Sequence record: PX930851.1
DNA length: 64,000 nucleotides
Reading direction: 5' to 3' (one strand)
DNA from: a phage
Part shown: in pieces, positions 2,448-63,927 of the stretch
How the letters are laid out: each line of letters begins with the position of its first letter
How positions within the stretch are numbered: the stretch's first letter is position 1
The notes under the pieces: generated by a model
The model's database searches: none
What the model saw: only the letters and a program-made list of their open reading frames with translations
Told to the model about the DNA's origin: nothing
Position numbers and translations under genes: made by a program

Positions 2448-4267
2448 TACTGGCTCATCCATTCTTTACGAAGGTCAGCATTATCTCCCATGAGCATTTC
2501 AAAAAGCTCTTTCCAGTTCTCAGGAAGTTTAACAACATCATATACTGGATTTTGAATCATCTCACGATATTCAGATTTTTCCAAAGAGCCAAGTCCCTTA
2601 ATATAACGGATGCTATGTTTAGGTAGAGCATCTTTAGCACTCTCATATTCAGCGACTGTATAAAACCATTCTTGTTTTTTACCGACCTGAGCGATGATTA
2701 CAGGAGTTTTGACAAAGCGAATTCTTCCTTGTTCAAACAGTTCTGGCCAATTACTAAAAAATCCGAGCAGAGAAGGATAAATGCTTCCTAGACCATCATG
2801 GTCAGCATCAGTCATAATAGCAATATTATGATAATTCAAGTTTTCAGCTTTTTCACCTAGAACTAAACCCGTGATTGCGCAAATATCAAACAGTTCTTTG
2901 TTTTTAAGCATATCAGCATATGACATACCCCAACTGTTGAGAACTTTACCACGTAATGGATAACCACCATGAAGTTCTTTATCACGAACATCAATAAGAT
3001 ATCCGATAGCAGAATCACCCTCAGTCAAGAAAAGAGTAGTGTCAGCATCTTTACCACAAAGATTCGCTTTGATATGTTTATGAACCTTAGCTTTAGAAGC
3101 CTTTTTAGCTGCTTTAGTTTCTGCTGCTTTTTCTGCTGCTAATTTACGTGCTAAAGCAGCTTCAATAATCGGCATTAAAATTGCTTCATTATTTAGAATA
3201 GCGCGTGAAATCTTTTTAGCATCAAGTTGAATATGACTACGAATTTCGCCAAATGGAGAAGTCAAACGCTCTTTAGTTTGAGAATCAAATCGCATGTTTT
3301 TCATATCACGGACAAACATAACGATAGTCAAACATTCTTTGACACGTGCTTTAGTCACATCAATTTTGAACTTACGTTTGATTTGCGGAATAAGGTCTTC
3401 ACAAATATCATCCATAACACAGTCAATGTGATGGCCACCATTCTTAGTGTGAATGTTATTCACATAAGTTAATTGACGAAATCCATCCGGTGAACGACCA
3501 ACCGCAATAGAACAATTTTCTTGTTCTTGAACAATAGCATGTTCATCATACTGTCGTGCATATTTCTTAAAATTGCCCTGAACCTTTTTACCATTAAAGG
3601 TAAATTGAATATCAGGATAAACAACAGCAAGTGTCTGGAGACGATCTAGTGTAATGTCAAGATAAACTTGGGACAGCTCATTAGTTTCAAATGACATAAA
3701 ATCAGGAATGAAAGTAACACGAGTTCCTTTCCATTTTCCTGGAATAGTTTCCCATGATTTATTTTCCATGCCATTTGAACAACGAACTACAATATTATTT
3801 TGACCATCGCCAGTTTCACCGATAAACATCACAGAAAAAATGTTAGTTAAACTAGAACCAACACCATTCATACCACCGGTGACACGTTCTTTATCATCAC
3901 CGAAGTTACCACCTGCTTTTGGAATAGTCCAGGCGGCAACAGGACCAGGAATTTCTTCACCAGTAGGTGTTTTAACCATCGCTTGTGGAATACCGCGACC
4001 GTTATCTTCAACTGTTACTTGATTGTTTTTAATAGTAACATTAATTTTATTCGCGAATTTAAACTTAGTACGAATACCTTCATCTACTGAGTTATCGATA
4101 ATTTCATCAATAAGCTTAACAAGACCAGGTACATACTGAACACTTTCCCATTTACCAAACAGAAAGCGCTCATGCATTTCATTAGCAGAAGAACCAATGT
4201 ACATGCCGCTACGCTTTTTGATATGTTCAATATCGCTCAGAATTTTAATTTCATTCTTAATCATCAC
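2447..4267 (-). CDS. 39: DNA topoisomerase II large subunit, uninterrupted (equivalent to T4 gp39 plus gp60)
   Basis: 606 aa; GHKL ATPase motifs (IDNSVDE, EDNGRGIP) and TOPRIM motifs (LTEGDSAIG, MTDADHDG); no gene 60 split and no mobA. Confidence 0.9.
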   Translation of the reverse strand: MMIKNEIKILSDIEHIKKRSGMYIGSSANEMHERFLFGKWESVQYVPGLVKLIDEIIDNSVDEGIRTKFKFANKINVTIKNNQVTVEDNGRGIPQAMVKTPTGEEIPGPVAAWTIPKAGGNFGDDKERVTGGMNGVGSSLTNIFSVMFIGETGDGQNNIVVRCSNGMENKSWETIPGKWKGTRVTFIPDFMSFETNELSQVYLDITLDRLQTLAVVYPDIQFTFNGKKVQGNFKKYARQYDEHAIVQEQENCSIAVGRSPDGFRQLTYVNNIHTKNGGHHIDCVMDDICEDLIPQIKRKFKIDVTKARVKECLTIVMFVRDMKNMRFDSQTKERLTSPFGEIRSHIQLDAKKISRAILNNEAILMPIIEAALARKLAAEKAAETKAAKKASKAKVHKHIKANLCGKDADTTLFLTEGDSAIGYLIDVRDKELHGGYPLRGKVLNSWGMSYADMLKNKELFDICAITGLVLGEKAENLNYHNIAIMTDADHDGLGSIYPSLLGFFSNWPELFEQGRIRFVKTPVIIAQVGKKQEWFYTVAEYESAKDALPKHSIRYIKGLGSLEKSEYREMIQNPVYDVVKLPENWKELFEMLMGDNADLRKEWMSQ

Positions 4268-15448: not shown

Positions 15449-15658
15449 TTAAATTACATGATTATTTATAATAAATTCTCGCGGAACGTTAAAATATCCG
15501 ATTTTAGTTAATATAACAACATCACCGTTAATAATTACCGGAGAATAATCTTCTGGAGCATTAAATTTCCAATGGGCTCTAATATTATATCCATCAGAAC
15601 CAAATGCTCGAGTAGCCGGTCTCCCGGCTTTTTGCCACGCGTAGAAATCAAATTTCAT
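15449..15658 (-). CDS. hypothetical small protein
   Basis: 69 aa. Confidence 0.45.
   Translation of the reverse strand: MKFDFYAWQKAGRPATRAFGSDGYNIRAHWKFNAPEDYSPVIINGDVVILTKIGYFNVPREFIINNHVI
15463..15470 (-). promoter_or_regulatory. T4 late promoter (TATAAATA) for soc
   Basis: exact TATAAATA on minus strand about 30 nt upstream of soc ATG. Confidence 0.65.
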
Positions 15659-61412: not shown

Positions 61413-61742
61413 TCAATTAGAAAATAAATTTATCCAAGATTGTTCTTTAATTAAAAATGGCTCAGAATCATATGCCATTAAACTTTGGGTGATTAGTCCT
61501 TTAAAAGGTCCATCAATAAATTCCATGGTAAAATATGGAATTTTATTCATTAGCCGTGCATTAGGAGCAGTACATAAAACTCTGCATCCTTTGAATACAC
61601 CCTTTTGTAATTTGTATTGCTTGGGATAAAATTCGCTCAAAATGTTATTATTTGCTAAAATTTCAAAATGATTCACCAATTTATTTTTAATAGTTTTTGG
61701 CGAAAAATAGAGATATTCGAAAAGCTGTGTGTCTGTCATCAT
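61413..61742 (-). CDS. hypothetical protein
   Basis: 109 aa. Confidence 0.45.
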
Positions 61743-62281
61743 TGCATTCCAATAACAAAAAATTGAGGACGAACTGTTTCACCTGTTTCAGCATTATAGC
61801 TTCGACAACAGTGTTGTACCGTTTTAATATGGATATTGTAAATCTTATCCATATCAGGAGCTTTAATAGGTTCGTCAATTATGTACAAGATACGAGAAAG
61901 CGATAACCCACGGAATTTATGACCTTCATTACCGATAAAACTACGGACAGAATCAGTAAATAAACGAAAACGTATATCATCATTAGAATAACGCGAAAAT
62001 TCCTTTTTAATGTTATTTGCAGAAATTTTAGCGTAAGCTGAAGTATTAGAAAGAACAATAACTGTTCCGCCATCATACAGCCAATTAGCAGCAAAGTTAG
62101 TCACAGCAATTGATTTACCGGATTGACGTCCACCATCTATACGAAGTGTGCAGTACTGTTTGAGCACATCTTCCATTGGTGGAAGATAATCATTCTTACA
62201 AAGTTCTTCTACTCTAGCATCAGAATGGTGTGTAAAAGCATTCATCAGGGATAGATAAGGACCAGTTAAAAATGTTCTCAT
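61739..62281 (-). CDS. small P-loop NTPase-like protein (start uncertain; alternative ATG at 62329)
   Basis: Walker A GGRQSGKS, Walker B ILYIIDEP; 180 aa from ATG at 62281. Confidence 0.45.
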   Translation of the reverse strand: MRTFLTGPYLSLMNAFTHHSDARVEELCKNDYLPPMEDVLKQYCTLRIDGGRQSGKSIAVTNFAANWLYDGGTVIVLSNTSAYAKISANNIKKEFSRYSNDDIRFRLFTDSVRSFIGNEGHKFRGLSLSRILYIIDEPIKAPDMDKIYNIHIKTVQHCCRSYNAETGETVRPQFFVIGMQ

Positions 62282-62422
62282 TTTATTCTCTCTAAGTTTG
62301 GGCCATTCCGTGGCGCATGAATTGTCCATTTCTGTATTTACCCATTACCGCACTTGGGCTCGACCTTATCACAGGTTGGCGGGAATCCCTCATAGAATCA
62401 TGAGGTCCAGGTTGTTCCCATA

Positions 62423-62896
62423 TTATTTGAACGATTTAACGTACTGAATAGAACCTTTACTATTCACAAAGGCAATTTTACCATTTTTATTATACATGGT
62501 AGCAGTACGCTGATAACCATAGGTTTGTTTACCAGATTGATAACCAACTAATGCAAAATTATCTTCACCCATTTTATTCTGTTTAGCGCGAATGCGTTCA
62601 TGACCATGTGCCATAAGAACCTTAGCATCACCAGTTGCAATGGATCGACGAGTTTTTTCATCTTCAACTGCATTAACAAAGTCGTCAAATGAATCAAATT
62701 TAGCATGAGATTTATTATACAATTTTCCATCTACTGCATAATTATATCCCTGTACATCCATCTCAACTTCTGTACCATCATCCAATACAGCAGTAATTTT
62801 TTGACCTTTTTTAAATTTCAAAAGATCAGTAAAAGATTCAGCAATAATTTGAGAATTAATAGCTGCTTCAGTGATAAATTCTTGATATGTTTTCAT
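62423..62896 (-). CDS. internal protein with capsid-targeting sequence
   Basis: 157 aa; N-terminus MKTYQEFITEA matches the T4 IP targeting sequence with I-x-E cleavage context; adjacent to denV/e. Confidence 0.6.
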   Translation of the reverse strand: MKTYQEFITEAAINSQIIAESFTDLLKFKKGQKITAVLDDGTEVEMDVQGYNYAVDGKLYNKSHAKFDSFDDFVNAVEDEKTRRSIATGDAKVLMAHGHERIRAKQNKMGEDNFALVGYQSGKQTYGYQRTATMYNKNGKIAFVNSKGSIQYVKSFK

Positions 62897-62905
62897 GGGT
62901 TTCCT

Positions 62906-63322
62906 TTAAATGTAAATATTTTTACCGTAATACTTATACCAATGTGGTTTCATTAAAATTTTTTCATCAAGTCGTTGTTGACTCAATTTAATAGCTGATT
63001 TGCATGGATTATAATCATTTTTCCATTCTATTGGAATATCGCTGATGTCAGGAACTTCAGTATCTTTTATACTGAACCCGCGTTTTAAGCATTCCGTTAT
63101 AATGTCTAATTGACGCTTTCGCAAAAATTCTAACTTATCGTAAAAGAACGTAACATGACCAGAACCTAAAATAAACTCGGAAGATATTTTAAAATCTTTA
63201 ACGCGCTTACCGTTTGCCACATGCTTACGAACTATACCAAAAACACGCGGCAATTCACGGTATTCTGCGATTAAATGTTGATCAGCAAGTTCAGATACTA
63301 AAGTCAAATTAATACGAGTCAT
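62906..63322 (-). CDS. denV: endonuclease V (pyrimidine dimer DNA glycosylase)
   Basis: 138 aa [29 protein letters not shown]...; early promoter upstream. Confidence 0.9.
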
Positions 63323-63347
63323 TTTATCCCTCCAAGTAACTGTGAAT

Positions 63348-63377
63348 ATACTATCACAATTCTAGGAGAAAGTAAAC
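63348..63377 (-). promoter_or_regulatory. T4-type early promoter for denV
   Basis: minus strand gtttac-N18-tagtat. Confidence 0.5.
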
Positions 63378-63381
63378 AACT

Positions 63382-63927
<546 letters not shown>

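Follow-up and report, generated by a model that had tools for sequence, protein, structure and literature searches.

The 157-aa open reading frame (ORF) beside denV and e in the window, which is the whole 64-kb stretch of phage DNA that was analysed, is by its sequence the ip4 gene of a T2/RB51-type Tequatrovirus and encodes the named internal head protein Ip4/IpIV. The window itself is the opening ~64 kb of such a phage. Ip4 was strongly conserved and is probably packaged in the capsid and injected, and an inhibitor of a host nuclease is the function that we tentatively favour for it. The features of the locus are collected in Table 1.

Table 1. Features of the ip4 locus (positions in the 64-kb window unless a metagenomic sequence is named)
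Feature	Coordinates	Strand	Remarks
T4 late-promoter motif TATAAATA upstream of e	63903..63910	minus	exact match
e (T4-type lysozyme)	63382..63876	minus	Pfam Phage_lysozyme; 96.4% aa identity to T4 e
denV (endonuclease V)	62906..63322	minus	Pfam Pyr_excise, phrog_1183; between e and ip4, same orientation
ip leader cassette (28 nt upstream and CTS codons)	62865..62924	minus	conserved relative to T4 ipII/ipIII
ip4 coding sequence	62423..62896	minus	from the ORF list; 157 aa including Met, ATG start, stop codon within coordinates
Codons 1–10, MKTYQEFITE, capsid-targeting sequence (CTS) and first predicted gp21 site	62867..62896	minus	I-T-E, cut after E10
Codons 11–20, AAINSQIIAE, second propeptide segment and second predicted gp21 site	62837..62866	minus	I-A-E, cut after E20
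Predicted mature Ip4*, residues 21–157	62426..62836	minus	137 aa, 15.5 kDa, pI 9.3
Distant DUF7412 homologue	L003 181..654		34–36% identity, MNF-type leader

The protein, which begins MKTYQEFITEAAINSQIIAES, was identical to the 'Ip4' of RB51 (YP_002854082), whose record carries the comment 'similar to T2, RB70 Ip4'. It shared 99.4% of its amino acids with the T2 ipIV protein (YP_010073775) and 98% with UniProt Q38388, 'Ip4 [Enterobacteria phage K3]'. In tblastn searches the homologues in ES12 and RB68 were 100% identical, and the matching protein in PP01 was annotated 'IpIV internal head protein'. Across K3, T2, RB51, RB68 and wV7, Ip4/IpIV showed 98–100% amino acid identity over the full length, with the same leader and the same locus downstream of e. 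The 2.3-kb region was 99.7% identical to phage ECML-363 and 99% identical to wV7 and RB51, both annotated 'Ip4'. Pfam PF24183 (DUF7412) matched with 318.7 bits against a cut-off of 27 (E 9.4e-96), aligning residues 1–157 with profile positions 1–158, and phrog_3155 'internal virion protein' matched the full length of the product with an E of 1.2e-101. The full-length Pfam match, a dN/dS of 0.024 against T2 and a Shine–Dalgarno sequence ahead of the ATG (AAGGAAA at about 62901..62907, spaced by 5–6 nt) confirmed that the gene is real.

An earlier note on this DNA had implied that the protein was new, which these matches overturned. Ip4 is already known, the gene, its leader and the question of its target are all in the literature, and it is no new kind of object. 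The comparison with known internal proteins that had been called for thus returned identity to the named Ip4, but none to an internal protein of known function. The name goes back to the polymorphic Ip series (Repoila et al. 1994, as cited in PMC12373910), and in the searchable literature nothing relevant beyond PMC12373910 was found on the function or virion proteomics of Ip4/IpIV/DUF7412. Our additions, namely a conserved second cleavage site, a body with no known fold or catalytic motif, purifying selection, linkage to e across genera and the position of the denV cassette, refine this picture.

The near-exact match to the T4 leader that had been noted before held up, with the addition that it is encoded on the minus strand. 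The leaders of T4 IPII and IPIII, translated from NC_000866, both read MKTYQEFIAEA, and the Ip4 leader MKTYQEFITEA agreed with them at 10 of 11 positions. A six-frame scan of the 64 kb for KTYQEF, TYQEF and YQEFI matched the ip4 ORF alone, so the statement that a single internal protein gene sits next to denV and e is true within the window. RB51-type phages have a further internal protein, Ip5, which is encoded at the ipI locus beside 57B, outside the 64 kb. In IPIII, residues 4 and 7 are the main determinants of capsid targeting, and residues 8 and 10 those of processing (PMC9026906). Ip4 keeps these determinants, Y4 and F7 for targeting and I8 and E10 for processing, and its sole difference from the T4 leader, A9T, is at a position that is unreported as decisive for IPIII. 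The I-T-E and I-A-E contexts described earlier are present, at residues 8–10 and 18–20, and no other [LI]xE site occurs in the protein. In an alignment of 14 family members, which were cluster representatives with 60–99% identity, the leader, E10 and E20 were invariant, and the third residue before each cut was always hydrophobic (I, L, M or V at position 18). The intervening residues 11–17 were variable and contained indels, and AlphaFold2 gave residues 11–16 a pLDDT below 50, as for a disordered propeptide linker. The propeptides of internal proteins are 10–19 residues long (PMC9026906). Because the targeting and processing determinants as well as E10 and E20 are conserved, Ip4 is predicted to be packaged through its leader and to be cut twice by gp21. 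The T4 protein IPI* (Ip1) is similar in its CTS leader, its two-step propeptide of about 19–20 residues (predicted in Ip4), its small size, its markedly asymmetric charge and its hyperplastic ip locus, and the protein is dispensable in laboratory hosts. In contrast, the mature parts share neither sequence nor fold, IPI* has 76 aa whereas Ip4* is predicted to have 137, and IPI* is encoded at the ipI locus near 57B and Ip4 at the e locus.

The gene had also been placed earlier, as a CTS-bearing internal protein gene, at the polymorphic ip locus beside e, and this assignment was correct. Of the two ip loci (e and 57B), ip4 occupies the one next to e, as do the T4 genes for IPII and IPIII, which likewise lie between e and vs.8, have a near-identical leader and upstream sequence and encode basic proteins. 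The gene order is e–denV–ip4–vs.8 here, e–ipIII–ipII–denV–vs.8 in T4 and e–ipIV–vs.8 remnant in T2. Thus, e is directly followed by ipIV in T2, whereas here and in RB51 the denV cassette stands between e and ip4. In blastn comparisons the flanks of the locus were 90–96% identical to both T2 and T4, and the sequence right after the ip4 stop codon corresponded to that after the T4 denV stop codon. T2 lacks a 421-nt cassette (63332..62912) that contains denV and has 23 nt instead (L001 5963..5985). The denV stop codon is 9 nt upstream of ip4, and the last codons of denV (GKNIYI and the stop) are overlapped, and encoded, by the conserved ip upstream sequence. The leader cassette was 91.7% identical over 60 nt to the start of T4 ipII with its upstream sequence and 89% identical over 47 nt to that of ipIII, with unrelated gene bodies.

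Several further observations were made in the neighbourhood of ip4. denV behaves as a discrete 421-nt cassette, found in the e/ip4 interval here and in RB51 and beyond the ip genes in T4 (L002 2440..2856); the window copy had only 71.5% nucleotide and 77.7% amino acid identity to T4 denV (dS about 1.5) despite flanks of 90–96% identity. Just after e lies a hairpin (63327..63371, minus strand; dG -18.3 kcal/mol, z -3.2) whose 3' arm, GGAGGGA, is the denV Shine–Dalgarno sequence, so denV may be poorly translated from messages that read through from e. T4 has homologous palindromes, CCTAGAATTGTGA...TCACAATTCTAGG (dG -20.4, z -6.5), after e and between ipIII and ipII (L002 about 3255..3292 and 3960..4000), and these elements of the e locus could mark the borders of cassettes or sites of RNA processing. 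In the stretch that follows ip4, the GC content rises to 48% against 34% for the window. An RNA gene was considered for the GC-rich 93 nt after ip4 and rejected, as there was no tRNA, no Rfam match and a folding z-score of -0.2; the stretch is the 5' part of a T4-type vs.8. This vs.8 region (61739..62393, minus strand) is split relative to T4: a 33-aa ORF (62292..62393) matches T4 Vs.8 residues 1–35 with 33 of 35 aligned positions identical, and a 196-aa ORF in a different frame (61739..62329) matches the remaining Vs.8 at 81% and gave weak P-loop, AAA and terminase-N matches. In T2, the vs.8 annotation covers no more than a 110-aa fragment, which follows a 344-nt gap.

The arrangement of promoters at the locus suggested how ip4 is expressed. 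The motif ahead of e (63910..63903) was the sole correctly oriented exact late-promoter motif upstream of ip4, 1 kb away, and no terminator-like site was predicted on the minus strand from there to ip4. On these grounds, ip4 is probably expressed from a late e–denV–ip4 transcript with e as its first gene. T4 likewise has a late-promoter motif at this locus only upstream of e. A late promoter specific to ip4 was rejected, as no exact TATAAATA occurs between ip4 and the site ahead of e; TATAAGTA, with one mismatch to the motif, lies inside the 3' end of denV. Over both strands of the 64 kb there were three exact occurrences of TATAAATA, at 15470, 56878 and 63910 and each on the minus strand, whereas shuffled sequences gave an expectation of 11 +/- 3.4. 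This scarcity would fit an avoidance of the motif in a region of mostly early and middle genes.

Ip4 is under strong purifying selection. Compared with T2 ipIV, the gene had 97.7% nucleotide and 99.4% amino acid identity (dS 0.11, dN 0.003, dN/dS 0.024), and with a dN/dS of 0.02–0.27 for lysozyme e, depending on the pair, the constraint on ip4 was at least as tight. These values bear on the idea that the leader is a relic, in which case Ip4 would be unpackaged or non-functional cargo and the ORF would be hitch-hiking in a recombination cassette. The leader and the 28 nt upstream of it are common to unrelated ip genes and have the look of a recombination border. However, 99.4% amino acid identity at a dS of 0.11, conservation over the full length down to 34–36% identity, metagenomic homologues that keep a leader and LxE sites, and CTS determinants that are all intact make it highly improbable.

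The conservation extended across genera. Between Tequatrovirus and Jiaodavirus/Gelderlandvirus, Ip4 was 68–71% and lysozyme e 65–66% identical, and in both of the latter genera ip4 directly follows e, with an ipIII homologue next in some Jiaodavirus genomes. In tblastn searches, Ip4 was found in 471 phage records; the counts were 261 for IPIII, 198 for IPII and 1152 for a T4-type e. The ip4 gene was thus present in about 41% of the records with a T4-type e, and T4 itself lacks it. These counts and identities indicate that polymorphism at the e locus is a presence or absence of well-conserved cassettes, not rapid change within a cassette. In Klebsiella phage KEN37 (Jiaodavirus, L006 2006..3631), e is followed in tandem by an ip4 homologue (68%) and a close ipIII homologue with the leader MKTYKEFITEA, so Ip4 and IPIII are not mutually exclusive at the e locus. 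Variant or broken copies were also seen (proteins P0014, P0018 and P0020). Klebsiella phage vB_Kpn_AM_K5 has a 184-aa form whose C-terminus is inserted and diverged. In a 100-aa protein, unrelated sequence is joined to the C-terminus of Ip4, which makes up the final 35 residues, and a truncated protein of 39 aa matches the first ~30 residues of the window Ip4 exactly.

To a mainly structural role, with Ip4 as a basic head protein for core assembly or for DNA condensation and ejection and no host target, the composition and the distribution of the protein are both relevant. IPII and IPIII were long proposed to be structural or physical components of the head. Mature Ip4 is basic (pI 9.3, 17 Lys) and has a basic C-terminal half, and its strong purifying selection and its vertical-looking conservation beside e in several genera would suit such a role. 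IPIII mutants gave a smaller burst and more polyheads, and there are about 300 copies of each internal protein with the DNA (PMC9026906). However, ip4 is polymorphic in its presence and absence, missing from T4 and found in about 41% of e-bearing records, and must therefore be dispensable for head assembly. Mature Ip4 is dipolar, with a computed net charge of -8 for residues 37–82 and +10 for residues 83–157, and the acidic segment is ill-suited to a simple DNA-coating protein. Furthermore, the supposedly structural IPII and IPIII proved to be specific nuclease inhibitors (PMC12373910). We consider a mainly structural Ip4 unlikely.

To ask what kind of protein the body is, remote relatives and the fold were considered together. 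AlphaFold2 produced a moderately confident model (pLDDT 77, pTM 0.73) with a mixed alpha/beta body. A fold search of PDB and BFVD returned no significant match except Ip4 itself, the K3 protein Q38388 being the sole significant structural neighbour among viral models, and a PDB sequence profile search and NCBIfam gave noise alone. When 1.84 billion representative proteins were searched exhaustively with a profile, all eight matches were phage-like members of DUF7412 or fragments of such proteins, and none was a bacterial or annotated relative. Three more distant full-length relatives from metagenomes were found (E 1e-17 to 1e-22; 34–36% identity), with leaders of the MNFxxFLNE-S type, that is, MNF(K/E)(D/Q)FLNES. 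One of these, within L004 139..1215 (JGI metagenome 3300044579; 34% identity), has ELNES as its second site and lies directly 3' of a denV-like (Pyr_excise) gene, which suggests that the denV–ip4 neighbourhood and the two-site propeptide are old. The residues that stayed invariant out to the distant homologues were G, V, K, N, S, A, L, Q, Y and T only, in motifs that included NKSxA, NKxG, QxG and GYxxT. No D, E, H or C was invariant across Ip4 and these homologues. An enzymatic Ip4 had been a candidate owing to histidines of metal-binding or catalytic look in 'LMAHGHERI' and 'HAKF', and was rejected, as these are replaced in the distant homologues (P0015–P0017). Since the histidines of the close family are not kept in the distant homologues, the comparison favours a binding protein over an enzyme.

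An anti-defence role for Ip4 is only an analogy, drawn from the T4 internal proteins. Inhibition by Ip1, Ip2 and Ip3 is strictly specific, each of them acting on a single GmrSD variant (PMC12373910). IPI* inhibits GmrS/GmrD of strain CT596 (PMC3012670), and IPII (Ip2) and IPIII (Ip3) are inhibitors of GmrSD-ECOR21 and GmrSD-ECOR17, respectively; IPIII is required on ECOR17 and, when it lacks its CTS, is active from within the cytoplasm (PMC9391042). Because all three T4 internal proteins of known function inhibit GmrSD variants, a GmrSD-like target suggests itself for Ip4 as well, and the reading that we tentatively prefer is an injected, stoichiometric inhibitor of a modification-dependent nuclease that has not yet been tried. 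In this mechanism, late transcription from TATAAATA ahead of e would yield an e–denV–ip4 message, and the Ip4 precursor would enter the prohead scaffolding core by means of its 10-residue capsid-targeting sequence. The prohead protease gp21 would then cut after E10 and subsequently after E20, and the 137-aa basic mature protein would be kept in the head with the DNA and co-injected. A non-enzymatic inhibitor would in this way be in place when the DNA arrives in the cell. The probable target would be a host nuclease of Type IV that acts on glucosyl-hydroxymethylcytosine DNA, in the GmrSD family or similar, of another subtype.

The Ip4 body shared no sequence or fold with Ip1–3 (BLASTP for IPII and IPIII, and fold searches). 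In BLASTP, IPIII aligned with Ip4 residues 1–13 only, and IPII gave a weak 31% stretch. This bears out the earlier remark that the body is unlike IPII and IPIII, the similarity being essentially the leader, and Ip4 is also unrelated to Ip5. T2 is restricted by GmrSD-ECOR17 and GmrSD-ECOR21 (PMC12373910) and carries ipIV, so Ip4 is no substitute for IPII and IPIII. Expression of ip4–10 in cells gave no reproducible inhibition of the five further GmrSD systems that act on T-even phages (PMC12373910, Supplementary Fig. 9). A further point against the nuclease-inhibitor reading is that Ip4 bears no arms-race signature, given its dN/dS of 0.024 and a cross-genus conservation like that of e. Such conservation would be explained by a conserved target or by a structural role no less well than by a fast-evolving nuclease.

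These results raise the alternative that Ip4 is an injected effector with a target other than GmrSD, either a different defence that acts early or a conserved host factor that E. coli, Klebsiella, Proteus and Serratia share. Such a target could be another DNA-sensing system, a DNA glycosylase for modified cytosine, or a periplasmic or membrane block to DNA entry. The negative published GmrSD tests, the strong conservation in at least four genera whose hosts differ, at a lysozyme-like rate (dN/dS 0.02), the rank of Ip4 as the commonest internal protein at the e locus (471 records compared with 261 and 198) and the steady description of new defences against T-even modified DNA all favour such a target. 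Nevertheless, every internal protein of known target so far acts on GmrSD, and sequence and fold searches pointed to no particular alternative, which leaves this a possibility of modest weight. In a more specific version, Ip4 would be the ancestral occupant of the ip locus beside e as well as the most widespread one, and would neutralise a conserved, unrecognised, early-acting non-GmrSD defence or host factor of Enterobacteriaceae. As part of it, Ip4 could be near-constant in Tequatrovirus, Jiaodavirus, Gelderlandvirus and the Serratia and Salmonella T4-likes and have a fold without a solved relative; as a whole we regard it as rather doubtful.

Internal proteins act before phage gene expression and are thus the phage's first counter-defence. 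The question of the Ip4 target has already been recognised, and tests by others have begun (PMC12373910). Phages that bear Ip4 include many therapeutic candidates against O157, Shigella and Klebsiella. Knowledge of the target would account for part of the host range of T2/RB51-type phages, and it might bring to light a defence or an inhibitor fold that is new.
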